This document shows, in pieces, positions 5,140 to 57,094 of a stretch of 64,000 nucleotides of DNA. Made by a program: the position numbers and the translations under genes. The notes under the pieces were generated by a model. It did no database searches and had not been told where the DNA came from. It saw only the letters and a program-made list of their open reading frames with translations. How positions within the stretch are numbered: position 1 is the first letter of the stretch; every line of letters begins with the position of its first letter. Source of the DNA: Isurus oxyrinchus (Eukaryota); assembly GCA_026770705.1 (NCBI GenBank), contig JANJGN010000008.1, positions 25,544,001 through 25,608,000 of the forward strand, given 5' to 3'.

Positions 5140-6260
5140 TGCATCTCTTCTACAGCTTGCGCCTTAGGATCAGGGAAAAAAACATTTCGCTGCCAGCGCA
5201 TACTTGACTTTGACCATCTTCAGTTGCAGTTTTTTCTTGTTCAGCTTCGAGTTTATTATCTGTTGAGCTCTTTCTAGCAGTCTCACTAGATTCTGATCAT
5301 GCAAGCCTCTGCAAGCCTTCTTCCAACATATCACCATATCCCTAGACTAGTAAATCATTCACAATCACTTCCATTCTTGGAAGATCACTGACTTGCTCAT
5401 GCTGTACACTGCGACTCTTCCAGAGCAGTGGAAATGCCAAATGGCATGCGCAACCATCTGTGCGTCCCAAATGGCATTCACAACATAGAATCTAAAAAAC
5501 TGCTGCTTTCATCCAACTTCACTTGCCAGTATCCATCCTTTGCATCCGGGGTGGTCAAGACCGTTGCCTTTGCAAGTTATGGAAAAATTTCTTCAGTGGT
5601 TGCTGTGGCGTATTAAGATCTCTGCAAAGCTTTATTGAGGTCCTTTGGATCCATGCACACTCTCAGCTTTCCAGTTTGTAATCACTGCTACCATGCTGCT
5701 TATCCAGACTGTAGGAGCTGTCACTTTCTTGGTCACTCCCATCTTTTCATGCTCCTTTCTCTTCTCTTTTAGACTGGACTGGAGGGTAGCTGGAACTCTC
5801 CTCAGAAGATGCCGAGTTGGCCTCACACTCTCATCAAGATGATATTCATCAGGAAGACATCCAAGACTTGTGAAAACATCTTTGTAATTTTTCACAATCT
5901 GTTCAGCAGTCAATAGCTTGGTGTCATGCAAAACACTACAAGTCTCTTCTAGTACATGGAGGGTTACCAGTCCAAGCTTTTGAATTGTCTCAGCTGAGAT
6001 GAGGGGATTTTGCTTACTATCTGGAACTGTAGATCTTCTTTCTTCCCATTGCATTGAGTTCTCAGCTTAGTTTTCCCCCTTGATGTGAGAATCATGTAGC
6101 CTCAACATTACCTGCGATGGCTTCATTTTCAGGTCACCATCTTGAGCATCTTCACATGGGTCTACAAAGCTCATAATGTTGCATGTAGCACTGGTGTCGA
6201 TCTGACACTTCACATTAACTTGATGCTTTCCTTCTGCAGTCATCATTCAAATAGTCACAA
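5140..6260 (-). pseudogene. Gypsy protease/RT remnant of element A
   Basis: Minus strand reads CQIDTSATCN (aspartic protease site, ~6180-6210), then YKDVFTSLGCLPDEYHL...TVWISSMVAV, and degenerate RT to ~5140. Confidence 0.75.
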
Positions 6261-6348
6261 GCTATTTTTCACCTTGACAGAGCCAACATGTTCTAGGATG
6301 TAGAGTAATTCAATCACAACCGTCTTTATCGGCTTGCTTTTCTACTTT

Positions 6349-7087
6349 CTAGCAAAACACTTGCGTGAAAATTGATTCAGGTTCTTGTAGTTGGAGCATT
6401 GCTTTTCCCATGCTGGACATGGTTCCTTTCTTTTGTGTGGTGTCCTCTACAATATTTACATCCAGTACTCTGGCTTTGATCTTTCTGCTGACGCTTCTGT
6501 AAACAGTTCTTCCTGAGCTGCCTCTCTGCATAGTGCAAAGCCTTATCAGTTCTCACAGCAATACTCTTCAGCTGATGATTAATCACTTCAGAGCTTCTGC
6601 ACATGTCAATAGCTTTCTTGAGAGTCAATGTCTCTTCCCTAAGCAGATGTGCTCTCATGGCAGGATATCTTGTTCCTAAGGCAATCCTATCTCTGATCAG
6701 ATCATCCTTCAGTTGCTCAAACTCGTAAGATTCAGCTAGATGTCTCACAGCACTCACATACTGATCAAATATTCTCTCCCTGTTCCTGAGCTCTGGTGTT
6801 GAACACATAATGTTCATAAATAAAATTAGTAGAGGGTTCAAAGTGGGTCTTCAAGACCTCCAAAATTTCACAAGACTGGCTTTCCTGCTCCTCAGCAAGG
6901 TCTAGAGTGCAATAAAGCTTGTAGCACTCTTTCCCAGCACTGATAACAGAATTGCTATTCTTATTTTTTCAGGTTGCTTGTCCAACTTTGTGGCAATTTT
7001 GTAGCTCTGCCATTGTGACTGGAAGAAATTCCAATTTATTCTCAAATCTGCCTTTATCTCCATAGATGCTGGAATATTCAAAGCCAT
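6349..7087 (-). pseudogene. Gypsy gag remnant (frameshifted) of element A
   Basis: MALNIPASME...NWNFFQSQWQSYKIATKLDKQPEKIRIAILLSVLG, then QLKDDLIRDRIALG...LTLKKAIDMCRSSE and a CKYC knuckle. These are typical Gypsy gag motifs. Confidence 0.8.
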
Positions 7088-7450
7088 ACTTACTCACCCA
7101 ATGGCCAATGTCCTGTAAAAAGTTACAGACTGAAATTTTAATTATTCCTGCTTTTTCTTACAATAGCTGGCTCTCTTCCAGATATCAAATCCATTCAATT
7201 TCAGCGGCATAATCCAGGCACTACATTCTATATGGTGGGTAAAATGGCTTCTGCCTCAATCCTTCACTCACAAAGGAATCATAGAGGTCACATAACTCTG
7301 AGGTCACATGACTATGGCAATCTGCTTAGACAACAGGCAACCATGCACAGATGCATTTCTCCAAACAGTAGACACAATGAAGGCTTCACCTGATGAGGGG
7401 TTTTGTTATTTACCTCATAAAGACTTCAAAAAACCTGAGGGAAAAGTTAA

Positions 7451-7672
7451 AAACAAAAAACTGCGGGTGCTGGAAATCCAAAACAAAAACAGAATTACCT
7501 GGAAAAACTCAGCAGGTCTGGCAGCATCGACGGAGAAGAAAAGAGTTGACGTTTCAAGTCCTCATGACCTCAGTTCTGTTGAAGGGTCATGAGGACTCGA
7601 AACGTCAACTCTTTTCTTCTCCGCTGATGCTGCCAGACCTGCTGAGTTTTTCCAGGTAATTCTGTTTTTGTT
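7451..7672. mobile_element. Palindromic Penelope-like terminal-repeat insertion (inverted pLTR dimer)
   Basis: Arms ~7482-7569 and ~7585-7672 are reverse complements. The sequence matches the terminus of the GIY-YIG element at 12268. Perfect 16-bp TSD CTGAGGGAAAAGTTAA at 7435-7450 and 7673-7688. Confidence 0.9.
7572..7610 (+). ncRNA. Putative minimal type I hammerhead ribozyme (variant core CUGUUGA)
   Basis: AGTT-CTGTTGA-A-GGGTC atgag GACTC-GAAA-CG-TC-AACT. Stem I is AGTT/AACT, stem II is GGGTC/GACTC, followed by GAAA and a UC cleavage site. It lies in a Penelope terminus, where such motifs are known. Confidence 0.6.
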
Positions 7673-8608
7673 CTGAGGGAAAAGTTAATCAATCTCAAAT
7701 GGGATCATTGTTTTTCAGGGATGGCTTAGTAGCTCTTTTGAGAACTGAAGATCGCACAGCAGCTTTATGTTGAAGCCTCTCTCAGGCTTCTTCCACTGTG
7801 TTGAAACAATATGAAACTACTCCAACATTCCAAGTATTCATTGGGATGATCATTACTGGTGTGCCTTTGCAGTGCACCAAATCCAAAAATGCTAATGACA
7901 CAATGCCTGCAAATTGGGAAGAGTCATGGTTGGTAGCTGCAGGTGGTCAGAAGTCCTGTCCATTCCTTTTCCACTGACAGAGCAGGGCCTGAAAATTGCT
8001 GACCCCTCTATGCCCTTTTCCGAATCTACAAACTGAGTTTTAGCGAATATAATGCGTGTGCTTTTGCTTAACTGAGCCCTTCTCATTAGGACAACGTAGA
8101 TAAAGATAAACTGACTAGAAACTACTGTCCAGATAGACTCATGGTTTTTTTTTTAACATGGAGGTTAATTTCTTTGATCAACAGCTATGTCAAAGTAGCC
8201 ATTTCTCGTAAATGTGCAAAATTTTATTAATAATTTTTACCATCCAGGTAGATATTCTATGAAGAGCAGCTCTTTATTTTTTGGGTAAAATTTCTTTTGA
8301 TGCAACTCTCGCCTATAAAGCAGTTGGTTAGAGTATCCAAAAGGCATCAGCAGTTTTATGCTCATTTTAACTTTCAAAGCCATAGTAGATTACTGATGCA
8401 ATTGCCTTGACTGTGTAATGAGCTCCTCAGGCAAACAGCTGATTGTCTTTCCTTGACAATAATAGTTAGCACCAGATTTGTGTGTCACTTCTCTCACCCA
8501 AATAAAGCAGTCCTTTTAAAATTATCTAACCAAAAGTTTTATGCCACAATATTTTACTCTAACCAAAGTTTCATATGAAATTTGACTGAGATATTATAAC
8601 TTGTGTCA

Positions 8609-12200: not shown

Positions 12201-12329
12201 TAAAACAGCAGAAGTATCACACTCTTGACAGAACTAAGTGATCCCAAATCCAACAGACCAGATTAAAAACAAAAACAGAATTACCTGGAAAAACTCAGCA
12301 GGTCTGGCAGCATCGGCGGAGAAGAAAAG

Positions 12330-12368
12330 AGTTGACGTTTCGAGTCTTCATGACCCTTCGACAGAACT
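12330..12368 (-). ncRNA. Putative minimal hammerhead ribozyme (variant core CUGUCGA)
   Basis: Minus strand reads AGTT-CTGTCGA-A-GGGTC atgaa GACTC-GAAA-CG-TC-AACT. Confidence 0.55.
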
Positions 12369-12761
12369 TGATTTCGAGTCCAGGAAAGAGTTGAAATATA
12401 AGCTGGTTTAAGGTGTGTGGGGGGGGGGGGGTGGGGGCGGAGAGAGAGAGAGAGAGACAGAGGTGCTTGTGTAGACAAACAAGCAGTGATAGAAGCAGAT
12501 CATCAAAAGATGTCAGTGACAATGGGACAAAAGAACACATAGGTGTTAAAGTTAAAGTTGGTGATATTATCTAAACGAATGTGCTAATTAAGAATGGATG
12601 GTAGGGCACTCAAGGTACAGCTCTAGTGGGGGTGGGGGGGAGCATAAAAGATTTTAAAATATTTAAAAATAAGTGGGAAAAGAAAAATCTGTAAAATTTA
12701 TAGGGAAAAAAAGGGGAAAAAAAGGGGGAAACAGAAAGGGGGTGGGGATGGGGGAGGGAGC

Positions 12762-13091
12762 TCACGACCTAAAGTTGTTGAATTCAATATTCAGACCGGA
12801 AGGCTGTAAGGTGCCTAGTCGGAAGATGAGGTGTTGTTCCTCCAGTTTGCGTTGGGCTTCACTGGAACAATGCAGTAAGCCAAGGACAGACATGTGGGCA
12901 AGAGAGCAGGGTGGAGTGTTAAAATGGCAAGCGACAGGGAGGTTTGGGTCATTCTTGCGGACAGACCGCAGGTGTTCTGCAAAGCGGTCGCCCAGTTTAC
13001 GTTTGGTCTCTCCAATGTAGAGGAGACCACATTGGGAGCAACGAATGCAGTAGACTAAGTTGGGGGAAATGCAAGTGAAATACTGCTTCAC
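12762..13091 (-). pseudogene. Penelope GIY-YIG endonuclease domain (C-terminal part of a truncated ORF)
   Basis: NLVYCIRCSQCGLLYIGETKRKLGDRFAEHLRSV...PVACHFN...EQHLIFRLGTLQPSGLN, the PLE GIY-YIG signature. Confidence 0.9.
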
Positions 13092-13376
13092 TTGAAAGGA
13101 GTGTTTGGGCCCTTGGACGGTGAGGAGAGAGGAAGTGAAGGGGCAGGTGTTACATCTTTTGCGTGGGCATGGGGTGGTGCCATAGGAGGGGGTTGAGGAG
13201 TAGGGGGTGATGGAGGAGTGGACCAGGGTGTCCCGGAGGGAGCGATCCCTACGGAATGCCGATAAGGGGGGTGAAGGGAAGATGTGTTTGGTGGTGGCAT
13301 CATGCTGGAGTTGGCGGAAATGGCGGAGGATGATCCTTTGAATGCGGAGGCTGGTGGGGTGATAAGACCAGATTAA

Positions 13377-13418
13377 AGCTCTGATGATGAAGAGTCATAT
13401 GGACTCGAAATGTCAACT
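13377..13418 (+). ncRNA. Putative hammerhead ribozyme motif (CUGAUGA core)
   Basis: AGCT-CTGATGA-TGAA-GAGTC atatg GACTC-GAAA-TG-TC-AACT. Canonical core, with extra bases before stem II. Confidence 0.5.
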
Positions 13419-13477
13419 GTGTTCCTCTCCGCAGATGCTGTCAGACCTGCTGAGTTTTTCCAGCTATTTTTGTTTTT
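13384..13477 (+). mobile_element. Short Penelope terminal-repeat insertion, opposite orientation to its neighbour
   Basis: Matches the PLE terminus (GACTCGAAATGTCAAC...CAGACCTGCTGAGTTTTTCCAG). Flanked by AGA(C/T)CAGATTAAAGCTCTG 19-bp duplications at 13365-13383 and 13478-13496. Confidence 0.8.
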
Positions 13478-13830
13478 AGATCAGATTAAAGCTCTGCAGT
13501 TCTGCTATATCCAGCCTCAAACAATGGTGGGCAACTAAGCAACTAATGGGAGGAGGAGGCCTTGTGAACGTTCCCATGTTCAATTATGGTAGAGCCCACA
13601 CGAGTGCCTAAGGGGCTGAAGTGTTCACAATCATTTTCAGGTAGGAATGTCGAGTGGATGATCCTACTCTGCCTCCTACTGAGGTCCCCAACATCACAGG
13701 TGCTAGCCTTCAGCCAGTTCAGTTCAATCCATTGGATATTAGTGATGAGTGCACTGAACACAACAAAAGCTATGAGTCCTGATAACATCCTGGCTGTAAT
13801 TGTGAAGATACATGTTCCAAACCGAATCAT

Positions 13831-18386: not shown

Positions 18387-20898
18387 ATGCTACTGTTTGG
18401 AAGAATCAATTCATATGATGCTAACATTGAAGATTGGAGTCAGTATGTCGAGCCACTTGGGTTCTATTTCATTGTGAACAAGATTACTGCTGAAGAAAAA
18501 TGTAAAGCTATCCTGCTGAGTGCATGTGGAAGCAAAATGTATAATCTGATTCAAAACCTGACTACCCCGAACGCACCCAGTTCTAAGTCGTACAGGGAGT
18601 CACTGGAACTTTCCGCCCAAATCACCTGTGATTGTGCAGCGCTCCAAATTTAATTCGAGAGTTTGCGCCCTGGGAAAGTCCATCGCTACCTTTGTGGTGA
18701 ATCTGAAACAGTTAACTGAATACTGTGGGCAGAATTTTCCCACCGTTGGGGGCGAGTTGATGGGCTGGCACGTGCGGATGCACTTCCGATCAGAGGCGTG
18801 GCGCCATATTACGTGGGTGGGCCAATTAAGCGCTGTGCACTCCCTATGCAGGCGAGGGGGTAATCCTTAAAATCGAGAGTGTGGTCTTTCACGCATGCGC
18901 ACGAAAAAGCGCACTCATCTCCCTGAGGCTAAGTGCTGCCTCAGGGAGATCGGCTCTACTTGCAACAATATTAAAAGTAGAAAAAAAATTCCCTTACATG
19001 TCACCTCATGTGACAATGTCACATGAGTTGGGACATCTTCATAATTTCCATAACAACTTTATTAAAATTTTTAAAACGCTACTTGAAACCTCATCCCGCC
19101 GCTGGATGAGGTTTCATGTTTTTTCTATTTGCCACCGGGGCTCCTGGTCTGTCCACCAACTTTAAGGTTGGACGGGCAGGTCCTTTAATTGCTTAATTGA
19201 TCCTGTTAATGGTCTCAATTGGCCATTGACAGGTCAGTGCACGTGCAGCTAATTTTGCTGTGCCCCCACCTTCCTGAAAATTTAAATGGGGCACGGTGAT
19301 GTCTGGAGTTCCGCCCGACGTCATCCCGCATCATTTTATGCATCGGTGAGTGGGCCCTGCCCCCTGCTCGCCAATGGTAAAATCCTGCCCTGTGTGTTTG
19401 GGGATGCCTTGAATGATATGCTGCAGGACAGACTTGTGTGTGGAGTCAAGGACAATGCCCTGCAGCACTGCTTGCTAGCCAAATCCAACATTGAGTTCAA
19501 GCGCACCCTAGAACTTTCTCTATGGAAAGTGCCATGAAAGACTCGCAGGCTTTGCAGCATGTGGATAATGGTGTCGTACTTCATATTGTGCAGGAGCCTG
19601 CCGTTGAGCAAGCGTGAAAAACAGAACAGCAGATTTTAAACGCAATACTGTGCCCACTACACAAAGACTTAGGAAGCCTAATGGCAACTCACCAGCTAAG
19701 ATAAGCATTTGCTACAGAAATAGAGGAAATCACGGTGTAGCCGCTTGAGATTCAAAGAGTCAGAATGTAATTATTGCCACAGGAAAAGGACACCTGGTTA
19801 GGCAGTGAAGAACAAAGGATAGGCAACCAGAAAAACAACAAACAAATCTGATTGAGCTAACTGAGACAGCAGAGGCTGAGGCTGCTACTACTAATGTATA
19901 CTCTTTGTACCATATGATTGCTGTTAAACCTGAGGCCATTGCAGTGACACTGCAAGTGAATGGCAAGCAACTGCAGATGGAGGTGGATACCCGAGCTTCA
20001 ACTACTGTTGTTGGGGAGCACATGTTCAAGTACCTCAGTGAAGGGAGTCAGCCATTGACATTGGAGCAGACATCTGCCAAACTGCAAGTTTACACTGGGG
20101 AACCCCTCATGTCAAAGGCGTTGCTGCTGTCCCAGTCTGCTACAAACAACAGACAACTCAACTGTCTGGTAATCATAAAGGGGGAGGGCCCCAGCCTTTT
20201 GGTTGGAAATTGACTGCAGAAAATAAAATTTGACTGGACAGAAATATTCCATTTGAAGTCTGATGGAATCCCAGAACTCTTGAAGAAATATGACACTGTT
20301 CTTCAAGACTAATTGGGAAAACTGAAGGGCATGCAAGCTAAAATGCACATCGATCCTCAGGTAACACTATGTTTCTTCAAGGCCAGGCCACTAAAAAATA
20401 TGGAAGCAGAGTTGTGAAGCTTGGAAAACCTGGGAATAATTCAGCCTGGCCAGTTTTCTGAGTGGGCCACACCCATAGTCCATTCCAGTTGTCAAGTCAG
20501 ACCAGACCATATGTATATGCAGTGACTACAAACTGACAGTTAACAAAGCAGCAACGTTAGACAAATAACCCATTCCTGGAATCGATAATTTGTCCGCCAG
20601 GTTAGCAGGAGACAAGTCATATACAAAACTGGACATGAACCAATTAACAAATTAGAATTGGATAGCACGTCAGGAGAATATGTGACAATTAATACCCATG
20701 AAGGCCCCTACAAGTACACCCGGTTACTTTTTGGAGTTTCATCAGCATGTGCTATTTTTCAGCGAACCATGAAGAGTCTCCTTCAGGGACTTCCATGTGT
20801 GATCATGTACTTAGATGACGTTCTCATCACTGGACTGACCGAAGCTGAACATTTAGCCAACCTTGAAGATGTGCTGAGAAGATTTATGGAAGCAAGTG
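18387..20898 (+). pseudogene. Element B gag, protease and N-terminal RT (disrupted)
   Basis: MLLFGRINSYD...WSQYVE (gag), LQDRLVCG, MEVDTRAS (protease), YKYTRLLFGVSSACAIFQ...YLDDVLI (RT). Confidence 0.88.
18727..19390. mobile_element. Harbinger-like MITE (subfamily B) inside element B gag
   Basis: TIRs GGGCAGAATTTT / AAAATCCTGCCC and TSD TGT. Removing it restores the gag reading EYCVFGD. Confidence 0.92.
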
Positions 20899-22644: not shown

Positions 22645-25600
22645 ATGGCTTTATCCATGGCTAAAACTTCTTTGGAACTTGAAAGCTATAACTCTGATTG
22701 GGTTACATAAAGTATCTAAGGATAAGTTAACAGAGTTGGCGGAAACGTTACAGTTGAGGTTACCTTTAGGGGCAAAGAACTAGAGGCAGCAGAAAAAGGG
22801 AAAAAGACGAATTATACCAAAAAGAAATGGAAATGCGAAAACTTAATCTCCAGAGGGAAAAGTTAGCAAGGGAAGAGAGAATAAAGGAAAGAGACAGAGA
22901 GAATAAAGGAAAGAGACAGAGTCCCAGCTTAAAAAGTTGGATTTTAAAAAGGAGATATCAGATGCTGAGGAATGTTCTAATGATGAAAAAAACCTTTAAT
23001 CTAAAACCTAGTGGGGAGATGTTTAAATTTGTTCAAGCTCTTCTGAAGTTTGAGGAAAGGGATGTGGAGGCATTTCTAATTTCATTTGAGAAGATAACTA
23101 AACAAATGAAATGGCCGGAGGAAAATTGGACATTATTGTTACAATCTAGGTTGGAGGGTAGAGCACGTGAGGTTTATGCTTCACTGTCAGAAGAAATGTC
23201 GGTGGACTATCATGTGGTAAAAATGGTTATTTTGAGTGCATATGAGTTGGTGCCTAAAGAATACAGGCAGAAATTTAGGAATATGAGAAAACAGCCTGGG
23301 CACTTATATTGAACTTGAGAAAGTAAATGAAAATTGACCGGTGGATACGGGTATTAAAGATAGAGACAACATATGCAACTCTCAGAGAAGTAATTCTTTT
23401 GGAATAATTTAAAGATTCAATTCTATCAGTAATGAGAACTCATGTGGAAGAACAGAGGGTTAAAATAGTAAGACAAGCAGCAGAGATAGCTGGTGGTTAT
23501 GAGTTAGTTCATAGATCTAAACAATTTTTCATCACCTTTTAAAATCAGAGAAGGATAAAAAGTGGGAAGGTGAAAGGAAGTTCGGTGGTCAGGAAAGAGA
23601 AGAAGTAGGTGGAAATTTCCAGGAAGTGTTTTTTCTCAGACTAAAAAGGAAGATGCTGAATGTAGAAGTGACACTTGAAAATGGAGACATTTTCATTGTA
23701 ATAAAGTTGGACACACAAAGTCAGTATGTTGAAAATTACAGGGAATATCTGTTAGGATTATTGGGATGCAGAAGAATTCTGGAAGTAAAAGTACTGTGGG
23801 TTCTGAAGTTCGGGCATAGGAAAAACCAATGGTTAGTGTACAGTTAAAATAGGAAGAATCAGTGATAGGTAAAGAAGTGGGAATGTGTTCACAATTTACT
23901 GAGGAGAGTTCTGAGGAGCAGGTTGCTGACGTGTTTAGAGGTTTTGTATGTGAAGGGGAAGTCTTTCCATGTGTACAGGGTGGAGTAGGTAAATATGTTA
24001 AAATTTTAAGAGACAAATGGGCTAGTGAATCCTTAATGTTATGGGATAGTTATATTTGCTCAGAAGGATATTGCAAAAACAGATGATAATAAGTGGGGTT
24101 CATGGAGATGCTAAACCTATTCCATTGTGGAAGGTAAATTTAAAGAGTGAGTGGAAAATATGTAAGGTGATTGTTGGAGTAGTGGAAAAAAATGCCCATT
24201 GCAAGAATTCAATTTATCTTAGGTAATGATATAGCTGGGTCACAGATGTGGGTGATGCCTATGGTAGTTGAGCAGCCCGTAGAAGTGTTTTCAACAGAAG
24301 TGTTACAGAAAGAGCATCCTGGATTGTTTCCAGATTGTGTGGTAGCAAGATCACAAGCTCATAGGTTGAAACAGGAAAGATAGGAAGTTAAAAGGCAGGG
24401 AGAAGGTGTGGAAGTTCAATTAACTGACACTGTTTTTGATAAGATTGTTCAGGAAGAAAAAATGGAGGGTACTGCAGCTGAGATATTTACATCAAGATAG
24501 TTGGTAGAGTTACAGAAAGTGCATATGCAAATATGACAGTGATATCATACAGCTTACTCATAAAAATAGGCAGAATCTATTCCAGAATGTTATAACCTTA
24601 AAGGTAATGTGTAAATGAGAAAGTGGTGGCTGTATCATGTTTCAGCTGATGAAAACTGGAGGGAAGTACATCAGATTGTTATACCATTTGGATATAGAAA
24701 TGAGATCCTAGGAATAGCTCATGAAATTCAATTAGGGGGACATTTAGGAATTAGAAAGACAGGCAAAAATATAAAAAATATTGTTGTTGGCCTGGATTGC
24801 ATAGGGATGTAGTCAAATTCTGTTGAACATGTCGCACCTGTCAGGTGATAGGGAAACCACAAGCAGTGATTAAGCCGGCACCTTTAATTCCAATTCCAGC
24901 ATTTGAAAAACCTTTTACTAGGGCCGTGATTGATTGTGTAGAACCTCTCCCTAAGACTAAAAGTGGAAATCAGTACTCACTGACAATACTAGATGTGTCT
25001 ATAAGGTTTCCTGAAGTGATATCTTCGAGAAATATTACAACAAAGAAAATTCTGGAAGAATTGACTAAATATTTTACAAGATTTGGTTTACCAAAAGAAA
25101 TACAATCAAATCAGGATTCAAATCTCATGTCACAGCTGTTTAAGGAAGTAGTGAACAGTTTGGGGATTAAAACGGTTTAAGTCAACAGCTTATCCTGAGT
25201 CACAAGGGGCTTTGGAACAATGACATCAAACTTTAAAAACTATGATGAGGGCATATCCCACAGGATTGGGATGGGGGAATTCCATTCTAGTTATTTGCTA
25301 TTAGGGATGTTCCTAATGCATCGACTGGTTTTAGTCCTTTTGAACTAGTCTATGGTCATGAGGTAAGGGGACCACTGAAAATGATTCATCAGAAATTGGT
25401 GGGTCAAAATTCAGAAAGTACTCTCCTGGATTATGTATCATACTTCAGAGAAAGGGTGGACAGAGCATGTGAGTTAGCTAGAGAACATTTAAAGATATCA
25501 CAGCAAGTGATGAAAGTAAAGGCAGACAGGGAAGCTACAGCCCATGGTTTTCTTTTGGGGGCAAAAGTGTTAATTTTGTTACCAGTACTAGGTGACTCAT

Positions 25601-26100
25601 TAAAGGCACTGTTTAGTGGGCCTCACAGGATTGAAAAGAACCTGAGTGAAGTAAATTATTTAATAAATACTCCAGAAAGAAGGAAGAGGCAGACAACATG
25701 CAGTGAAAACATGCTTTAAAAGTACTTTGACAGGGAAGAGAACCAAAAGGAGGTATTAGTGGTGGTAGATAAGGAAAAAAAGGTAGAAATGAAGGATTCT
25801 GCACTTAATTTTACTCTAATCAAATTGGATAATGAGGGGGGTACTTGAAAATTTACATGTGAATATTGAGTTACCTTCCAGACAAGTGTCAAATTGATTT
25901 GGAGAAGCTATTGCAGTCACACAAAGCTATTTGTGTGAATAATCTGGAGAGGACAAATTTAACTATACATGATGTGTGTATGGAAGTGTCATCTTTGCTA
26001 AGGCAACATCCTTATATATTAAATCTGGCAAAGTTATCACAAGCACAGAAAGAAATTGAATTCATGCTTCAAAATGACATCATTGAATCTAATTGCAGAT
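22645..26100 (+). pseudogene. Element D gag (SCAN-like capsid), protease, integrase and RT start
   Basis: FEERDVEAFLISFEK...WTLLLQSRLEGRAREVY (gag), ILRDKWAS (protease), AHEIQLGGHLG, PFTRAVIDCVEPLPKTKSGNQY (integrase), then RQHPY (RT start). The rest of RT and RNase H are absent. Confidence 0.88.
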
Positions 26101-26383: not shown

Positions 26384-27420
26384 TCGGACACTGGGCCGGA
26401 AGGATTTGTACACATTTTGTTATGTCAATGCATGCACCTGGTAATGTAAGATGGGTTAAGAAAATGAAGGCGTCTTTTTAAATTATGACAGTTCATTTTC
26501 CCAGAAGGAGGATAGTGTCATGAAAATATAACAATTCTCATAATATTATTGTGATTTATTGTAAAGGTAGGTTAATAGTGGGTTTTAATAGCTTCTGTGT
26601 GTGTGTTGGGGGGGGGGGGCGCGGTGCGGATTTAATTGAATTGGAGAAAACTGGTCTGGAAGGTTTGAGTCATCAAAAAGAAGCTAGGTTTGAAATGTTA
26701 AATATGTAAATATGGCTGAAGTTTTAGAACGTGAGGTGTAAGGAAAATTTGCATTTTTAGATAAACTAGTATAGTTTGAGTTTCAGAGATGGTAAGATGT
26801 TACATCTAGCCAGAAGCTAAACCAAACAGTGTGTTTATATTTTCCCAAAGTTTACTGATAATAAGAGCACAATGGAAAGATTTATGTTATGAGCAAGATA
26901 AAGTTCTATATTGGAACAATGAAATTTGCATTAAAAGGGAAAAACATGCTTAAAGAGTCTGAGGCTATGTGTCAAGGAGGAGAAGGCATTCTGGGATCTA
27001 ACACAAGTGTGAAAAACCTCTGCCACTGTGCATCAAGTTGCTGTCTACAGGAACCAAAGCTGAGAAAACTCACTTTTAATTCTCCTGTCCAGGGTATTGT
27101 GTTGCTTTGCCTGGGCCTGTTTAAATCTATTTGTTTTTATTGTTTTCTTAATGGAGGTGTAATTGGGAGCCAGATTAATTAGGGATTTTAAGAGTTATTA
27201 TCATAGTAATTTGTAGGCCTATGGATATGCTTGAAATCTTTTCTTTTGTTAATAAATATTTAATTTAGTTTTCTAAAAATCTCTGAAGTCGCGGTCGTCT
27301 TATTATTTCTGCATTCAGGTTATGTATCTCAAAATAAAATACAAATTGCAAAACAGTTGTGATCAAGTTTCTCTTGTGGATTTGATCCACCTGGCACACA
27401 TCATCTGCCACGTCTTAACA

Positions 27421-29284
27421 AGGTGTGCATTTGAAGCAAGAAAAATGCACATTTCTAGCATCAGAGATAACCTACCTAGGTCACAGTGTGGACGCTATAG
27501 GGTTGCATCCTGCTGAAGACAAGGTCCCAGCAATTAAAGATGCACCATCACCCTCTAGTGTGACACAGCTTAAATCTTTGCTAGGTATGATAAATTACCA
27601 TAGCCGCTTTTCACCTAATCTATCTACTGTACTAGCACCACTAGATTTGTTGCTGAAGAAGAACCACTGCTGGTCATGGGGTTCACAGCAAGAAGACACC
27701 ATTGTAACAATAAATAAACTGCTTCATTCGTCATGCTTGTTGATACGTTATGACCCATCTAAAGAGCTGGTGTTGGTGTGTGATGCTTCTCCTTGTGGTG
27801 TAGGAGCTGTTCTGTCACATTAAATTGAGGACAGATCAGATAGATCCATTGGCTATGTTTCAAGAACACTCTCCCAAGCTGAAAAGGGCTACTCTCAGTT
27901 GGAAAAAAGGAGGATTGTCAATTGTCAAGAAGTCTCACCAATACCTACACGGGCAACATTTTACAATTGTGTCTGACCAAAAGCTGCTGACAGGTTTGTT
28001 CAGTGAAGGCAAACCTATTCTGCCTATAGATTCAGTGAGAATCCAACATCAAGCTTTGATGCTGTCAGCTTACGAGTACACATTCATGTACTGCCCTGGC
28101 TCACAAATGGCCAATGCAGAAGTACTTAGTTGTCTTCTGTTACTGGGTAGTCTTGTCAATACACCGGTTCCACAAGAGTTAGTGTTTTTGGTAAATTTTC
28201 TGGATTCATCATCTGTATGTGCCAAGCAGATCAAGAATTGGATGAATAGAAATCCAGTACTGTCAAAATTCAAAGACTTTGGGCAGAATTTTGTCGTTGG
28301 TGAGCAGGGGGCGGGGCCCACTCGCCGATGCGTAAAATGATGCAGGATGACGTCGGGCGGAACTCCCGACATCATCCCGCCCCATTTAAATTTTTAGGAA
28401 AGCGGGCCCGCAGCAAGATCAGCTGCGGACTCACCGACCTGTCAATGGCCTCAATTGGCCATTGTCAGGAACATTTAAGCAACTAAAGGGCCTGCCTGCC
28501 TACCTTAAGGTTGGCGGGCAGGCCAGGAGCCCCAGTGGCAAATAGAGAAAACATGAAACCTCATCCACTGGCGGGATGAGGTTTCATGCAGGGTGTTAAA
28601 AAGTATAATAAAGTTATTATGTAAGTTATGAACATGTCCCATCTCATGTGACATTGTCACGTATGGGGGACATGTTAGGGATTTTTTTTTCTCTATTTTT
28701 AATCTTTTTAAAAGTGTCAACAATCTCCCTGAGGCAGCACTTAGCCTCAGGGAGATGTGTGCACTCTCGCCTTTGGGGAATCCCCCCCCCCCCCGTGCCC
28801 ACACAGGAACCCCAAGCGCTTCCCACCGGACGTCACGCTGGATGGGCCTTAATTGGCCCACCCACGTAAAATGGCGGTGGGGCACCACTTCTCTGGCGGG
28901 GAACGGCTCCCCACCTGCCGGAGATTGGGTCAGGCCCACCCGCCCGGCAGGCAGAAAATTCTGCCCTTTGTTTTACAAGGATGGCCAAGAACGCTTGTGT
29001 CTGATGACTCGCGACTATTTTATACCAGAAACACTGAACTGAGTTGTCAAGATGGAATTTTGCTGCGGGGTTCAAGAGTCATGGTCCCATCACAGGGGAG
29101 AGAGTCACTCTTGGCAGAGCTCCACAGTGCACACCCAGGCATATTGAAGATGAAGATGCTGACACGTAGCTATGCCTTGTGGCCAGGAATAGACAGTGAC
29201 ATCAAGAGCATGGTTAAACACTGTTCCCTTTGCCAGCAACATCAGAAGCTACCTGTTTCAGCTCCACAGAGACTTGATTTGTAA
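27421..29284 (+). pseudogene. Element B C-terminal RT, RNase H and integrase zinc finger; integrase core deleted
   Basis: ITYLGHSV, LVCDASPCGVGAVLSH (RNase H) and LHSAHPGI...CSLCQQ (HHCC), followed directly by a terminal RLDL*. Confidence 0.85.
28281..28966. mobile_element. Harbinger-like MITE (subfamily B, reverse orientation) in element B pol
   Basis: TIRs GGGCAGAATTTT / AAAATTCTGCCC and TSD TTT. Confidence 0.92.
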
Positions 29285-33517: not shown

Positions 33518-34619
33518 ATGGTTTCAGTATGATACTTGGGGCCAGGATTGGTTTGGAGTTAGGTTAGGGTTAGCCTTAAAAAACATTATGGACTACCTTG
33601 TTATGGTTAGGTTTAGTGTTCGAATTGAAACCATTATTGACACATCATTGTCACTGGGCACTTCCTTTTATTCCCTCACACAGACTAGTCAGAAAGTAAC
33701 CTCATGAATTCAAGAAACTGCCTTCTTGCTCAATCCCAAGTTCCTCACTGCTTCCACATCTTTACACTTTTCACACAAAACAATAAACCGTCGGGGGCAT
33801 TAGGCTTGGGTATTTTGTCAGATGTACAGTAGATTCAGATGTTCCAATGGGTACATTCAGTTATCTGAATTTCTCTGAAACTCTTCTGGCAATAACCTGT
33901 CATCAGTCACTCTCTGCTTCCACCTGTCGAACCCCCTATGTTTTTCCATTAGGGTTAGGGTTGTGTTCCAGTGCTTCACCATTGCCCTGCTCCACCTTTT
34001 ACCATCAGATACTTCTAATTGAAAAGTGTTTAACCAGAACTGAGGAATGTGCGACTTTCCGCTACGGAGAGAGTGAAAGTGGCAGAAGGACAGGCTCGAG
34101 CGGAGAATCAAAAGCCAACTGTGAAAATGGGAGCAGACAAAGAGAGATGGAAAAAATATGAGGCTGTGATTGGAGGAACGGAAGGTGGGAATTATATCTG
34201 ACTCACTGTCAGATATCACAGTTTTGGCAGCCAAGGGTAGAAATTACCCAATTTGGCCATCGCCTGTCTTGCCCATGGGAGCTGGAGATTTGCCCCTGCC
34301 CCCAGCCCTGATCTACAGCTCTGTGACAGTCCATTAAAGGGGCTGATAATTGCAATGCTTGACTTGGAATGTGTGATAGCTCAGAGAAACAAATATCCTG
34401 CTTTACTGCAGATTGCACATCTCTCCCTTTCTCATTTACTTTTTCATTTTTAAGTTCAGTGAATAGATGCAATCAGTTTGTACTTTATGTTGCATGCTTT
34501 GCAAAAATTATTTCATTTAAAAATTTAAGCATAGCTGCACTAATCCAAATACATCTCAATCAACCCGCCTCACAAACAGAAAGAGGAGTAGTGCATATTC
34601 CACGATACAAATGTGAACA

Positions 34620-34861
34620 AATAGATAAAAACAAAAAACTGCAGATGCTGGAAATCCAAAACAAAAACAGAATTACCTGGAAAAACTCAGCAGGTCTGGC
34701 AACATCGGCGGAGAAGAAAAGAGTTGACTTTTCGAGTCCTCATGACCCTTCAATAGAACAGTTCTGTTGAAGGATCATGAGGACTCGAAACGTCAACTCT
34801 TTTCTTCTCCGCCGATGTTGCCAGACCTGCTGATTTTTTCCAGGTAATTCTGTTTTTGTTT
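34620..34861. mobile_element. Palindromic Penelope-like terminal-repeat insertion (inverted pLTR dimer)
   Basis: Arms ~34658-34759 and ~34761-34862 are reverse complements with essentially no spacer. Imperfect TSD TACAAATGTGAACA / TACGAATATGAACA. Confidence 0.9.
34722..34798. ncRNA. Back-to-back hammerhead-like motifs on both strands
   Basis: Plus strand 34760-34798: AGTT-CTGTTGA-A-GGATC atgag GACTC-GAAA-CG-TC-AACT. Minus strand 34722-34759: GTT-CTATTGA-A-GGGTC atgag GACTC-GAAA-AG-TC-AACT. Each carries point changes. Confidence 0.5.
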
Positions 34862-35429
34862 TACGAATATGAACACTAGGACCCCACAACTCACTTTGGC
34901 TGCTTGTGTTATAATTAAATCAGGCCAATGAAAAATTAACCTGGAGAAAGAATTAGCATAAAATTCATTTTGAAGGTGTTAGCTGCAGAAATCAGAAGTA
35001 AAACCCCTCTTTGCTGTCCATATAACCATAGGCCTGGGCCCTAACCCTCTTGACCTCTTCTCTAAAGCCTGAAGTCCTCCTGAATGGCTCTTTTGGACAT
35101 TGACCATCCTGAATAATGGGCTACTCAACCAATGAGCTCAGCACCCCCCTCCCCCCATCCCCCATCCCTCCCCAACCCCGCTTAGAGCCCAGAGCCCCAT
35201 TGATTAACATTCTCTGCACCCCCCTCTCCCAGGCTCAGGCTAAGTGTGCTGCCATTTTGCCTTTCATTGTTTTTTGGGGGTGGGAATCTCAGGGAAGTCA
35301 GTGCATTTTTACTGCAAGGCTCATGGCAGAGCACATTTTTTTATGTGACAAACTTCAGGATGTAGTTAAAGTTTTCTCTGAAATCCTACTGGATCCTTTT
35401 AATCAGGAAGATTAGAGCCTCTGACTTCT

Positions 35430-41474: not shown

Positions 41475-42225
41475 AAGAGCTTGACACCATCCAGGACAAA
41501 GCAGCCCGCTTGATTTTTTAAAAATTCATTCATGGGATGTGGGCTTCACTGGCTAGCCTAGCATTTATTGCCCACCCCAATTGCCCTTGAGAAGGTGATG
41601 ATGAGCTGCCTTCTTGAACCGCTACAGTCCATGTGGTGTAGGTACACCCACAGTGCTGTTAGGAAATGAGTTGCAGGATTTTGACCCAGTGATAGTGAAG
41701 GAACGATGATATAGTTCCAAGTCAGGATGGTGACTGACTTGGAGGGGAACTTCCAGGTGGTGGTGTTCCCAAGTATCTGCTACCCTTGTCCTTATAAATG
41801 GTAGTGGTCATGGGTTTGGAAGGTGCTGTCGAAGGAGCCTTGGCACCCACCCACAAATATTCACTCCCTCCACCATCGACACACAGTGGCAGCAGTATGT
41901 ACCATCTACAAGATGCACTGCCGAACCTCACAAAGGCTCCTTAGGCAGCACCTTCCAAACCCATGACCACTACCATCTAGTAGGACAAAACACCACTATG
42001 TGGAAGTTCCCCTCTTAAGCCACTCACCATCCTGACTTGGAAATATATCATTGTTCCTTCACCGTCACTGGGTCAAAATCCTTGAACTTCCTCCCTAACA
42101 GCACTGTGGGTGTACCTATACCACAGGGGCTGCAGCGGTTCAAGAAAGCACCTTCTCAAGGGCAATTAGGGATGGGCAATAAAAGCTGGCAAAGCCACTG
42201 ATGCCCACATCCCATAAATGAATTC
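41475..42225. mobile_element. LINE (CR1/L2-group) 3' end with an inverted copy of the same family inserted inside it
   Basis: Plus copy at 41475-41515 and 41842-42225. Minus copy at ~41520-41841 is the reverse complement of ~41931-42224. Confidence 0.8.
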
Positions 42226-48200: not shown

Positions 48201-48541
48201 GTGTCAGGCCAGAAATGATGGTGCTGAGGAGAAGAGTGAGGCCAAGAATCCTCTATGTTTTAACTGCCACAAGGCAGGACACAACTGTGCTGATTGTTGG
48301 ATGTTATAGGAAAAACCTATGGGATTTATTGGAGCACACAAACCCCACACAGAAAATGGGAGTCAGACAGAGAGCATAGCAGATCAGGCAATGTCTTTGA
48401 CTACAGCAGCAAATCCCTGATGGTGCATTATTCTGAGTACAGGTGAGTTTGAAAAAATCCCTGAGGGTTACAAGGGTTTTGTACCAAAAGGAAGAATGAC
48501 CATGTTTCCCCAGAGCAAGGTGAGTGAGCCTATAGTGATAC

Positions 48542-49803
48542 AAAAATAAAAAATGCTGGAAAAAACTCAGCCGGTCTGACAGCATCTACGGAGAGAAAGA
48601 CAGAGTTAACGTTTCGAATCCGTATGATTTCTTCAGAGCTAAAGGAAGTTAGAAATGTGATGAAATATATACTGTTTAAGGGGGGGATGGAATGGGTGAA
48701 GCTGGGTAGAAGGCCAGTGATAGGTGAAGGCAAAGGAGAGATTGCAAAAGATGTCTTAATTAAAAGGTGAAAGGGTTGTTAGTAGTGGTGGTACTAGCTA
48801 AAGGAGGCACGATTGGTGACATTAGGTGTGGAAAGTAGAATGTGATAATGGCAGGACCAGGGTAAGCACCATGGAAAGCGACAGATGGTCCGAGTAGGGT
48901 TGGGGTAGGGGGAGGTGGTGGGAAAAAAGATCGAAAAGGCTAAAAGCTGGGGATAAAACGATGAATTAAAATAGAAATAAATTTTAAAAACTATAATAAT
49001 GAAAGTAAGTGGGGGGATAAATAAATAAATAATTTTACAAATGAATATAGAAAAAAGGGGGGGATCAAAAAGAGGTGGGGATGGAGGAGAGAGTTCATGG
49101 ACTGAAGTTGTTGAACTCAAATATTAAGTCCGGAAGGCTGTAAAGTGCCTAGTCGGAAGATGAGGTGCTGTTCCTCCAGTTTGCGTGAGCTTCACTGGAA
49201 CAATGCAGCAGGCCAAGGACAGACATGTGAGCATGAGAGCAGGATGAAGTGTTGAAATGGCAAGTGACAGGAAGTTCTGGGTCATGCTTGCGGACAGACC
49301 AAAGGTGTTCTGTAAAACAGTCACCCAGTCTGCGTTTGGTCTCTCCAATGTAGAGGCAACCGCAAGGGAGCAGCGAATGCAGTAGACCAAATTGAGGGAA
49401 GTGCAAGTGAAGCGCTGCTTCACTTGAAAGGAGTGTTTGGGCCCTTGGATGGTGAGGAGGGGGTAAGTAAAGGGGCAGGTGTTGCACCTTCTCCGATTGC
49501 ATGGGAAGGTACTGTGGGAGGGAGTTGAGGTGTTGGGGGTGATGGAGGAGTGGATCAGGGTGTCCTGGAGGAAACAGTCCTTATGGAATGCCGACAGTGG
49601 GGTTGAAGGGAAGATATGTTTGGTGGTGGCATCATGCTGGAGTTGGCAGAAATGGCGGAGGATGATCCTTTGAATGCAGAGGCTGGTGAGATGAAAAGTG
49701 AGGTCAAGGGGTTCCCTATTCTTGTTCTGGGAGGGAGAGGACGGTGTGAGGGCAGAGGCACAGTAGATGGGTCAGACACGGTTGAGGGCCCTGTCAACCA
49801 TCA
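48542..49803 (-). mobile_element. 5'-truncated Penelope-like element inserted in element E
   Basis: Frameshifted GIY-YIG (NLVYCIRCS / LYIGETKRRLGD) at 49124-49502 and a terminal repeat at 48542-48640. TSD ATAGTGATAC at 48532-48541 and 49804-49813. Confidence 0.9.
48604..48640 (-). ncRNA. Putative hammerhead ribozyme motif (canonical CUGAAGA core)
   Basis: Minus strand reads AGCT-CTGAAGA-AATC atacg GATTC-GAAA-CG-TT-AACT. Confidence 0.5.
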
Positions 49804-52800
49804 ATAGTGATACTAAGGGATACAGGGGCCAGCCAAGCTCTACTGCTAGTTAAAGGCATGACCTTTCCGCTGGAGAGTGCAGTACCTGCCAAGATGTTGG
49901 TAAAGGGGATTAAAGGAGGCTGCATGCCCATCACCTCATACCGGATGCACCTGGAATACACACTTGTGTCAGGACCGTTGACTGTGGGAGTTGTCCCCAG
50001 TTTGTCTGTGGACAGAATCGACATGCTCCTCAGCAATGACCTGGAGGAAGTGTTAGCAATCCCAGTAGTATCAGGGAAGCCGAGTGAGGTCAGGTAGACA
50101 GAACAGCTGCAGGTAAATGCGTCCAACATTTTCCCTGAAGGTATGGTAACCCAGTCTATGACCAAACGAACTCTGTCAGAGGAGGCTGAAGTGGCACTGC
50201 AGACAGATGAACCTATTTTCTGGTTATCTGAGACCTTTCTCGGAAGTCCAGAAGATGTTAAGGAGGTCAATAAGTAGGTCTTCCTCGGTTGTGGCTCAGG
50301 AATCTGACCTGTTGTCAAAAAAAGTTAGCTCAGACTGCCTAAACCAAAGCTGAGGCAGAGGCAATCACTGAGTGCTGCTACATTAAAAAGAAATGTTATA
50401 AGGAAATGGAGACCCTCCCTCACAGATCTGCAAAAAGGAGTGGACAGTGATCCACCAGGTAGTGGTGTTGCTGAGGTACCCTGGGGAAATATTACAGCTA
50501 GTACACAAAATCCTGATGGCTGGGCATGTTGGTATATGAAAAACCTAAGCCCACGTCAGCCAGCATTTTTATTGGCCACACCTCCACACGGATGTAATAA
50601 GGTTTTGCAGAACCTGTCACACCCGCCAGGTTGTGGGACAACCCCAAACTGCAATAAAACCGGCACCTATAACTCCTGTGCCGGCTTTTGGGGAACCGTT
50701 CAGCAAGGTGTTAGTAGACTGTGTGAGGCCCCTACCAAAAACATAAGGGTTTATCAGTAAATCCTTACCATCATGGATGTGGCTACCCGTTTCCCAGAGG
50801 CCAAAATAGTGCAGGGGGGATTAACACAATTCTTTACCCTGTATGGACTTCCCACCGGATCCAGTCAGATCAGGGTTCAAATTTCATGTCCTGAATATTC
50901 CAGGAAGTCGCTACCAGGGACTTCCACAATGAGTCCATTGGTTTTACTTTGTTTAAATTGGTTATGAACAACAAGTGAGAGGTCCTCTGAAGTTAATCAA
51001 GGAGAGATTTTTAGAAGAGAAGGAATTCTCCATGTTAGACAATGTCACCCTGTTCCGTGAGTGACTCATGAGAGCTTGTGATGTGGCTTGAGAACATGTA
51101 AAAATCTCCCAAACTGCTATGAAGAAACAGGCAGAAAAATATGCCAGGGCCCAAGCCTTTCAGCCCAGAAATTATGTGCTAGTGCTCCTGCCAATACCAG
51201 GTGAACTGTAAAAGCCCCAGCCAGTGACACATACAGAGTAGCAAAGAAGCTTTGGGAGGTAAACTATATAACTGACAACCCGGGCTGCAGGAAGAAGCAA
51301 AGGTTGTGTCATGTTAATATGAGAAAACAATATCACAGCCGAGAAGGGACAAGCAGGTAATGGTCTGTGCGATAACAACAGATGTGGAGGACGAGGGGAG
51401 CAGAGGGAATATATTGGAGGGAAATGTGGGTGAAGCCCACATTGAACCCCCTACAACACAAAAATTCTAGCAAATTTGGGCACCATATTCACCCGTCTAA
51501 ATACAGAACAGCAAGGAAACCTGACAAGGCTGCTCACTGCATTTAGAGACGAGCCAGACTGCACTAATTCAACTCTACATGATGTGGATGTGGGAGAGAC
51601 CACTCCCATAAGGCAACATCCCTACCATCTCGGTCCAGAAAAGCTTGCCCTGGTTCGGGAGGAAATTAGGTACACGCTGGAGCGCCAACTACTAGAGCCT
51701 AGCAGCAGTAGCTGGAGATCCCCAGCTGCACCCGTGCCCAAGTCAGACAGTTCCACAAGGCTCTGCATTGACTACTACAATGTTAATGCAATGACCAGTG
51801 CCGACTCCTGGCCAATACCCCACCTAGAAGACTGCATAGATAGGGCAGGTAATGCAGCCCACATTACAAAGATAGATTTACTCAAGGGATACTGGCAGGT
51901 ACCCTTGACCGCTTGTGTGAAGGACACCTGCAGCCTCGAGACACCAGATGGATTATACCAATGTCGAGTCGGGCCATTTGGACCCTGCCACCTTTCAAAT
52001 GCTAATGAACCAGGTATGACAGGCTTACTCAATTGTGTAGTGTACCTAGACGACATCCTAGTGTACAGTGACACCTGGGAAACTCAATTAGAACAAGTGG
52101 AAGCCCTCTACCAGAAATGACAGTCATTGACCAAGCGTTCAATCTCATAAAGGGTGAATTTACTAAGACTTAGGATAAATGGTGGGTCAAAGGCAAGTAC
52201 TGGCCAGAGCTGCAAAGGTACAAGCAATAGCACTGTTCCCCATTCCCACAGCAAATCGGGGAAATCATGAGATTTATAGAGATGTGTTGGTTCGACGCCA
52301 AGTTCGTCCCAAACTGTAGCTATCCTGCTCTGAGACCTACTACAGAAAAAAGAAAAAGTAGTATGGACCGAGAAATGCCAGACAGCTTTCAAGGAGCTGG
52401 AAGCTGTCTTAATAAACACACCAGCGCTAACAGCTCCAGACTTTAACCAGGCATTTAAAGTAGCCATCGATGCTAGTGGCCTCGGGGTAGAGGCTGTCCG
52501 TCTGCAGGAGGACGAATCAGGAATAGAGACACCAATGGGTTACTTCTCCAAAAAACTGTACAAACATCAGAAATAGCATTCCACTGTAGAAAAAGAAACC
52601 CTAGGTTTATTACTGGCTCTCAAGCGCTTTGAGATATATGTCTGAAATGGGTATAGAGAGAGGGACCACAGTCCACACCAACCACAACCCTTTAACCTTT
52701 GTAGAGAAATTCAAAACCCAGAAATCAAGGTTATTCCATTGAAGTTTGTTTCTCCAGCCATATCATCTAAAAATAGCCCACGTTTCAGAGAAATCCAATG

Positions 52801-55210: not shown

Positions 55211-57094
55211 GCAAAATTCAGGTCTGTAGCATTGATGCAGACGATGCTGCAGAAGCTGACTGCCACCTCCACCAGCTTCCTCCCCCAGCCCTGTCCCATC
55301 CACAGTGGTGTGTATGGTGCCGGTGGCCACTTCTGGCCCAGTCTGCATAGTGCACAGTCTTGAGAAGGGATCTTGCATGGGCATTGCCCACGTGCACCGG
55401 AAACTTCTGAACAGGTCCTTTCATAACATCCTGTCCAAACAAGCCCAGTCTGTCCAACCTTTCCTCATAAGACAATCCACTCATTCCAGGTATCAATCCT
55501 ATAAACTTCCTTGGGACAGCTTTAATGCATTTACATCCTTCCTTAAATAAGGAGACTAAAACTACACACAGTGTTTGAGATGTGGTCTCACCAATGCCCT
55601 GTATAACTGAAGCATAACATCTTTACTTTTATGTTCAATTCCTCTCCTAGTAAAGGATAGCATTCCATTAGACTTCTTAATTACTTGCTGTACCAGCATA
55701 CTAACGTTTTGTGACTCATATACTAGAACAGCTAGATCACCCTACACCACAGAATTATGCAGCCATTCTCCATTTAATTAATACTGTGCTTTTGTGTTCT
55801 TCCTGGAAAAGTGAACAACTTCACATTTTCCTACATTAAATATCATTTGCCAGATCTTTGCCCACTGACTCAACCTGTCTATATCCATCTGCAACCTCCT
55901 CATGTCCTCCTCACAACACACTTTCCTCCCTATCTTGGTGTCATCTACAAATTTAGCTACCATGCCTTCACTCCCCTCATCTAAGTCATTGATGTAATTT
56001 GTAAAAAGTTGGGCCCCAGCACAGACTCGTGTAGGAACCCACTTGTCACATCCTGCCAATCTGAAAAAGACCCATTTATGCATGCTCCGTACTTTATGCC
56101 AGCCAGCCAATCTTCCATCCATGCTAACATGCTATACCATGTGCTTTTATTTTCCATGATCACCTTTGATGTGGCACCTTATCAAATGCCTTCTGGAAAT
56201 CCAAGTACAATATGTCTACAAGCTCTCCTTTATCCACTGCGCATGTTACTCCTTCAAAAAACTCCAATAAATTGGTTAAACATGACTTTCCTTTCACAGA
56301 ATCATGCTGACTATTCCAGATTGCCTTGAGCTCTTCTAAGTGCCCAGCTATAACCTCCTTAATGATCGATTCTAACAACTTCCCCATGACAGACGTCAAG
56401 CTAACTGGCCTATAGTTTCCTGTTTTCTGCCTCCCTCTCTTCTTGAATAGAGGGGTGATATTATATTTGCCACTTTCCAGTCTGATGGAACTTTTCCAGA
56501 ATCTAGTTAATTTTGGAACATTAACACCAGCACATTGACCACCTCATTAACCACCTCTTTTAAGACCCTAGGATGTAGTAGATCGGAACCTGGAGATTTG
56601 CCAGCCTCCAGCTCTATCAATTTGCTCAGTACCATTTCCCAAGTGATTTCAAGTTCACCAATTTCCTCTCTCCTTTCATCTCCTGATTTGCAGCTAATGA
56701 TGGAATGCTCTTTGTATCCTCCATAGTGAACACAGAAACAAAATATTCATTCATTTCTTCCACCATTTCCTTATTATCTACTATTAACTCCCCACTGTCA
56801 TCTCTATAGGGCCAACACTCATTTTATTTACTTTTTTTCTTTTTAAATACCTGTAGAAACCCTTGCAATCCATTTTTTACATTTCTAGCTAGCTAGCGTC
56901 CTCTCATACTCTAATTTCTTTCTCCTAGTTAACCTTTTAGTCATTCTCTGCCATTCTTTATATTCTAACCAATTATCTAGTTTGCCACTCATCTTTGAGG
57001 AATTGTATGCTTTTTCCTTAAGTTTGATGCTTTCCTTAACTTCCTTAGGTAACCACAGATGGTCGGTCCTCCCCTTAGAATTTTTCTTTGGCTA

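Follow-up and report, generated by a model that had tools for sequence, protein, structure and literature searches.

A palindromic insertion of a Penelope-like retrotransposon end in a shark genome, with a favoured fold point at the start of a hammerhead-like motif

Introduction

What determines the point at which the two halves of a palindromic retrotransposon insertion meet? The question is raised by a short insertion at positions 34606-34879 of a 64,000-nucleotide stretch of shark DNA, the whole of which is referred to here as the window. In this insertion two copies of one repeat stand head to head, and the point where they meet coincides closely with the 5' boundary of a hammerhead-like motif.

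Inverted truncated copies, a tail of 30-40 bp on one side and target duplications are standard for the Penelope-like class in the available parts of the literature (PMC8557442, PMC8969392, PMC3846280), and the origin of the inverted repeats is described there as still open (PMC8557442, PMC11167929). The combination of an inverted pseudo-LTR, a one-sided tail and a target duplication is an already published Penelope-like architecture. What this locus adds is a fold point that is favoured, that is offset from the cut site and that has a promoter-like context.

Four of the 24 listed sequencing runs, from organism A and a relative, organism B, were mapped as contigs and raw reads on positions 34200-35130. 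Organism B differed from organism A at 12 of 664 aligned bases (four records).

Results

Anatomy of the insertion

The insertion was described in an earlier note as two arms of about 100 bp, of Penelope origin, meeting at AGAAC-A-GTTCT, and both parts of this description were borne out. The left arm (34658-34759) and the right arm (34761-34862) are 102 nt each and 96% complementary, with mismatches at four positions, and the single nucleotide between them, A34760, is the centre of the sequence AGAAC-A-GTTCT at the fold. The same repeat, 95% identical, terminates the element at 12266-13364, where it follows a GIY-YIG region and a 3' UTR. The left arm carries a tail of 31-35 nt (34623-34627 to 34657) that is not present on the right arm.

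The flanking target duplication is imperfect. The flanks have TACAAATGTGAACA and TACGAATATGAACA in common, with identity at 12 of 14 positions (p 0.002 against 19,942 random flank pairs), and a gapped extension lengthens the duplication to about 19 bp. The two copies differ at 2/14 positions, for which p is 0.10 at the 3.9% of the arms, or at 4/19 positions (p 0.006); if the longer reading is right, the latter hints at homogenisation of the arms. An inverted pseudo-LTR, a tail in the 30-40-bp range at one end and a target duplication are thus all present, as in Penelope-like insertions, and by identity and architecture this is almost certainly a short insertion of the end of a Penelope-like retrotransposon. 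The locus is a decayed insertion with no sign of a host function. The features are collected in Table 1.

Table 1. Positions of the parts of the insertion and of related copies in the window.
Feature	Position	Strand	Description
Left target-site duplication copy	34606..34624	+	14 bp secure, up to 19 bp gapped; 12/14 against 34862-34875
Element tail, 31-35 nt	34623..34657	-	left arm only; the outer reverse-transcription start would lie at the tail end; family read ends
Inverted pseudo-LTR arm	34658..34759	-	damaged hammerhead (G5 changed to A and 15.2 C changed to A); first helix I base missing
Direct pseudo-LTR arm without tail	34760..34862	+	begins exactly with helix I
Minimal type I hammerhead-like motif	34760..34798	+	helix I 34760-63 with 34795-98; core CUGUUGA 34764-70 (U at position 6); bulged A; helix II 34772-76 with 34782-86 (one mismatch); GAAA; palindromic ACGU; predicted cut 34794/34795
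Right target-site duplication copy	34862..34879	+	34839-34933 identical in organism B
Sister palindromic insertion	7435..7688	.	perfect 16-bp duplication 7435-50 and 7673-88; tail on left arm
5'-truncated parent-type element	12266..13364	-	GIY-YIG region, 3' UTR and same pseudo-LTR without tail; 10-13-bp duplication; TATA-like box 12400-12393
Solo pseudo-LTR, older subfamily	13377..13477	+	19-bp duplication; start within about 5 nt of helix I start
Older truncated element of the same kind	48540..49771	-	TATATATT at 48671-48664; pyrimidine tract ending TAG just before helix I

Related copies and other repeats in the window

The sister insertion has its junction at 7570. The tail arm there is 12 nt shorter at the fold and the opposite arm begins with TCAG, so that the junction is unlike that at 34760, as had been noted. 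The arms at 7570 have no private change in common.

The parent-type element encodes a GIY-YIG domain, PF01541 being matched in the 12765-13364 copy with an E value of 9.2e-5 and 23.1 bits against the Pfam cut-off of 22.6. The Pfam profile search gave no PF01541 match in the older frameshifted copy. The best named homologues of the 12266-13364 element are shark and ray proteins with 54-66% identity (27 matches from 380 candidates). The copies in the window are truncated before the reverse transcriptase, and PF00078 was found in 3 of the 27 longer homologues. A C-x4-C-x2-C motif lies upstream of the GIY-YIG match in the frame 12762-13394. A Cys-rich motif between the reverse transcriptase and the endonuclease is characteristic of Neptune and Nematis in the available part of PMC8557442, and the linker points to a parent element of putative Neptune/Nematis type.

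In the region 12256-13496 insertions are nested at one target: the older solo pseudo-LTR has a 19-bp duplication whose left copy is interrupted by the young truncated element, so that three target copies result. The target there agrees with the older ribozyme motif over the initial 7 bases of the latter. Two further pairs of inverted repeats are unrelated to the Penelope repeat. One pair, of about 230 bp (3471-3701 and 4858-5090, 89-91%, 1.15 kb apart), possibly represents the terminal repeats of a DNA transposon; the other consists of 142-nt arms (41599-41740 and 42017-42158, 86%) 276 nt apart. Broken frames that by eye resemble fragments of LTR retrotransposons and LINEs are located at 5632-6850, 19809-20213, 22770-25719, 27419-29284, 51446-52120, 56160-56543 and 63609-63992.

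The hammerhead-like motif and the cut site

The motif in each arm has the minimal type I layout, with helix I, a bulge, helix II with a G-C closing pair, GAAA, ACGU and UH. Helix I is AGUU/AACU and helix II has 5 bp. Hammerhead pairing is complete in the copies at 7572 and 12368, and there is one mismatch in each arm of the 34606 insert; in the right arm it falls in helix II, while the left arm has lost G5 and C15.2. The core departs from the consensus C3 U4 G5 A6 N7 G8 A9, with U6 in the four young arms that reach it and G5 changed to A in the left arm. The canonical A6 is found in both older copies, in contrast to U6 in the young family of about 60,000 arms. The core consensus and the low activity of an A6C variant are given in the available part of PMC3088659. 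Both ribozyme copies of the 34606 insert are, to judge from their sequence, probably dead.

A search of Rfam with the 34606 insert gave no hammerhead match at E up to 1; the ribozyme assignment therefore rests on anatomy. The insert did match Rfam miRNA hairpins, but below the gathering scores, and these matches reflect nothing more than its hairpin shape. When folded as a single strand, the motif did no better than shuffled sequences (z -0.7 to 1.0). On the anatomical evidence, the hammerhead-like motif described in the earlier note as starting on each strand from the centre is present, although both copies are damaged. The fold had also been placed exactly at the 5' boundary of the ribozyme. 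This is true of the right arm, where A34760 is the first base of helix I, but the left arm is one base short. The fold lies 34 nt upstream of the predicted cut site at 34794/34795.

Two side observations concern related motifs. At 12368-12395 (minus strand) the young family has a degenerate ribozyme 3' half just upstream of helix I (GGACTCGAAA and then TC), with a would-be cut one base before the fold point; the pairing looks too weak to make an active ribozyme, and the older copy is without this half. In a shark gene model (protein P0004), the last 25 residues appear to be a read-through from the 3' UTR of a related element into the ribozyme motif, which follows a Ser/Leu/Pro run. Judged from the protein only, this run would be consistent with another family having a pyrimidine tract ahead of helix I.

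Abundance of the repeat and of its centre in the reads

The depth of the family at arm position 58 was 66,567 reads in run X23 against a mean flank depth of 1.1, which corresponds to roughly 60,000 arm copies. The family has 3' ends at 34623/34625 and, one tail-length away, at 34658. Across the centre, the depth was 891 at 34760 and 951 at 34758 in X23, and 655 and 715, respectively, in X22. We read the depth at the centre, about 890 and 655 reads in two species, as reads with an identical centre in register, since a read that does no more than stop at the boundary is counted as a loose end. Such loose ends numbered 21,651 and 12,562, the value for X23 being 21,651 against about 900 in-register reads. 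The in-register centre makes up 4-5% of the boundary reads and about 800 or more copies (891 reads over a flank depth of 1.1), figures in which joints and in-register depth are counted differently and the reads are not assignable to loci or masters.

Other joints, as judged from 15 of 499 that were listed on an unstated ranking basis, had 0-23 raw reads each. The best joint among these 15 runs from 34706 to 34760 and accounts for 23 of the 42 listed-joint reads in X23 (21 starts) and 7 of 17 in X22. Rare joints among the same 15 of 499 start at 34795, the base after the predicted cut, with 0-1 raw reads each; junctions at this base may record cleaved RNA templates. A mirror-symmetric joint, 34725 to 34795, was present in one X1 contig and one X22 read. 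The centre also has a variant, T at 34758, at about 15-17% in both species, well above background. T at the centre (12-14% of reads) was considered as a sign of a second polarity and proved uninformative, mapping ties alone predicting about 18%.

The recurrent centre is a hot spot or an amplified master and not a unique junction. From the difference between the two junctions, the earlier note had favoured formation of the 34606 insertion independently of that at 7570. It is indeed a separate insertion, but the same centre occurs in the roughly 890 and 655 reads mentioned above, so that its junction may also be a copied one.

A 95-nt record of organism B (record 15 of run X13) equals 34839-34933 without a difference; 24 nt of it lie inside the arm, below the 31-nt bridging rule. 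Since organism B holds the right junction, it offers no empty site, and the 34606 insertion probably predates the split of A and B. No insert-skipping joint, which would mark an empty site, was seen among the 15 of 499 joints listed, and none of the listed records of the four runs spans the whole insert or the left junction. Collections of viral and prokaryotic sequences gave 0 matches, and the nine loci of a metagenome scan were chance matches, all only to a 20-22-nt pattern.

The variant shared by the two arms

Both arms have T at arm position 58 (34702 and 34818), where the three other arms of the same subfamily in the window have C. Non-consensus letters at the variant site amount to 2.2% and 1.4% in X23 and to 2.7% and 1.8% in X22. 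Each arm has three rare changes, of which one is shared, and the chance that independent arms share at least one is about 0.09 with upper-bound frequencies. The shared variant had been taken to suggest that both arms came from one template or were homogenised. The variant is shared and rare (at most 1.4-2.7% of family reads), but with a chance of about 9% such an origin is weakly supported. The sharing is only weakly informative, since it is equally what a single RNA, a pair of RNAs from one donor or conversion at a later time would lead one to expect. The change at position 58 is synonymous in the ATG-started frame of the repeat. In the young repeat, a splice-donor-like CAG/GTAATT at 34838-34847 closes a short frame, MLPDLLSFSR; it does not occur in the older subfamily.

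Discussion

A proposed mechanism: double priming with run-off at helix I

The fold point likely marks the start of the element RNA and not the position of the ribozyme cut. The best explanation of the insertion is that both target ends primed cDNA at two start sites, that the cDNAs ran off the 5' end of the RNA, and that they were joined head to head. Taken as a whole, this mechanism has about an even chance of being correct. A staggered cut of the target, 14-19 bp apart as the duplication suggests, would be followed by priming from one 3' end at the outer start (the end of the tail, 133-137 nt from the fold) and from the other at the inner one, 102 nt from the fold. Both of these family ends are seen in the reads. 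Both cDNAs would halt at the 5' end of the RNA, which would coincide with the start of helix I and be determined by a promoter within the 3' UTR, the TATA-like box of which begins 31-32 nt before that base. The cDNA ends would then be joined head to head with the loss of one base.

In vitro, according to the available part of PMC11167929, an anole element cuts and extends both target strands, and internal starts at two sites define the tail. The same source reports that the template is RNA that has not been cleaved and that insertion in vitro does not depend on ribozyme cleavage, and it predicts a dimer. Internal pseudo-LTR promoters are likewise described in the accessible parts of the literature (PMC2377424, PMC3846280). 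In the window, four of five short arms have their ends no more than about 5 nt from where helix I starts, with a nominal p of about 0.002 that is optimistic because the arms of one insert are not independent and the end at 13377 is blurred by identity with the target. Compared with the consensus, the TATA-like box lies at -31 in the older copy (7/8) and at -32 in the young copy (6/8). Before AG sites of the window, a match of at least 7/8 is found at about 2%, one of at least 6/8 at 12-13%, and an exact TATAW in the slot at about 1%. The start of the 7570 arm is a 7/7 match to the initiator consensus.

Several observations weigh against parts of this mechanism. Most boundary reads run on into upstream element sequence, as the excess of loose ends in X23 (21,651 against about 900) indicates. 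The young box has just 6/8, a level seen at 12-13% of AG sites, and the two boxes are homologous and not independent. Two clean run-offs are expected to give a palindrome with zero spacer; no such insertion was found among those listed at 3%, and the constant loss of one base is therefore unexplained by run-off. The start site of D. virilis is placed about 120 nt farther upstream, and what maps to helix I there is the end of an intron, as far as the available parts of the sources go (PMC4209133, PMC2377424, PMC3846280).

Other explanations of the fold

The possibility was considered that a single cDNA or antisense template copies itself at the boundary by self-priming fold-back and is captured by the second target end at the inner start motif. 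An antisense template with fold-back is a published reading of head-to-head palindromic junctions (available part of PMC3846280), it is compatible with a fixed RNA 5' end, and both arms do share a base that is rare in the family reads (at most about 2%) as well as a minority U at core position 7. However, a loop of one base cannot prime, and a read-through template (TCAAGTT) has no microhomology at the 34760 junction. Moreover, sharing of this kind is expected by chance in about 9% of cases, no private change is common to the two arms at 7570, and strong asymmetry is seen in many of the joints. Fold-back is accordingly doubtful, though it deserves to be kept in view. The abundance of one centre, with about 800 or more copies, would be accounted for if the centre had been made once or a few times and then mobilised as a palindromic non-autonomous mini-element. 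The unremarkable asymmetric junction from 34706 to 34760, with 23 reads (21 starts) in X23 and 7 in X22, is in favour of such copying as well. We consider it unlikely, given that the centre variant T at 34758 stands at about 15-17% in both species, that 499 joints exist, and that one cDNA of a hairpin RNA does not easily yield precise start-site ends on both sides.

The boundary could also be a 3' splice site, or a processing or stall point at helix I, and not a transcription start. An intron of D. virilis ends at the 5' end of helix I (available part of PMC4209133), the older copy combines TAG with a pyrimidine tract (80% of 25 nt being pyrimidines), and in one contig a pyrimidine run and TAG precede the arm. 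The young copy, on the other hand, offers a weak AAG, and 42% of the 12 nt leading up to it are pyrimidines; the arms keep the AG or its G, with at most two extra bases, and no upstream exon is visible in them. The upstream hairpins are weak (-2.3 and 0 kcal/mol), and this group of explanations is distinctly improbable. Setting of the fold by self-cleavage of the ribozyme is hardly tenable. A few joints do start at 34795, including the mirror image 34725 to 34795, but the boundary of the ribozyme is not the cut site: the fold is 34 nt upstream of the cut with the whole motif in both arms, so that self-cleavage did not set it, and at 34760 this candidate was rejected by position. In addition, the family has U6, and cleavage is dispensable in vitro in the available part of PMC11167929. 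Finally, no listed record spans the insert and the left junction is absent from any single record, as might be the case for a fold-back artefact of assembly or library. The arms nevertheless differ at four positions, the tail is one-sided, the flanks are not inverted and there is a target duplication. Furthermore, the second species has the right junction without a difference, and all four runs contain the centre. An artefact is very unlikely, its probability being close to nil.

Comparison with known systems

In L1 twin priming, both target strands prime cDNA and an inversion within the target duplication is produced. The L1 cDNAs cover different parts of the RNA, whereas both shark arms cover the same 102 nt.

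The insert resembles canonical endonuclease-bearing Penelope-like insertions, as described in the available parts of PMC3846280, PMC8557442 and PMC2377424, in its head-to-head pseudo-LTR, a tail of the 31-bp class on one repeat, the duplication and the palindromic junction. Unlike these, it is reduced to its two ends, which span about 240 bp and contain no ORF, and the family as a whole shows a strong preference for one junction; target duplications are 10-19 bp in the shark compared with 8-10 in the canonical case. With Poseidon of Anolis carolinensis (PMC11167929, available part) it would share an uncleaved RNA template and two starts that are separated by the length of the tail and lie downstream of the ribozyme by roughly 100-140 nt. 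The shark parent differs from Poseidon in its Cys-rich linker, of the Neptune/Nematis type, and in U-rich start motifs on the sense strand. The inverted arms are not accounted for in the part of PMC11167929 that was available.

The motif is similar to the minimal type I hammerheads of metazoan Penelope-like elements (PMC4209133, available part), which have a 4-bp helix I, a bulge before helix II, a G10.1-C11.1 pair and a palindromic 15.2-16.2; pairs of minimal hammerheads on opposite strands, 100-700 bp apart, were noted in that source in 2014. The shark motifs differ in having U6 in the core and in abutting each other. Non-LTR retrozymes (bioRxiv 10.64898/2026.07.22.740005, available part) are, like the insert, short non-coding pseudo-LTR derivatives with type I hammerheads, but they form head-to-tail tandem arrays, whereas the shark arms are head to head. 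The literature searched, mostly open-access papers, yielded no earlier description of a fixed fold point or of palindromic stumps in sharks.

Implications for the family

With about 60,000 arms and a favoured fold point, the family is one in which double priming with run-off, self-priming and a copied master are separable from assembly and RNA 5'-end data. We tentatively propose a more general reading, which we regard as possible rather than probable: the inverted pseudo-LTR may be a strong-stop product, made by a dimeric enzyme that primes both target strands at the two tail-defining starts, with run-off at the capped 5' end of an RNA that begins exactly with helix I. Shark loci in the hundreds to thousands would then record that start to the base. 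If true, the strong-stop model would cover the inverted repeat, the tail and the target duplication by one mechanism and would give a genomic read-out.
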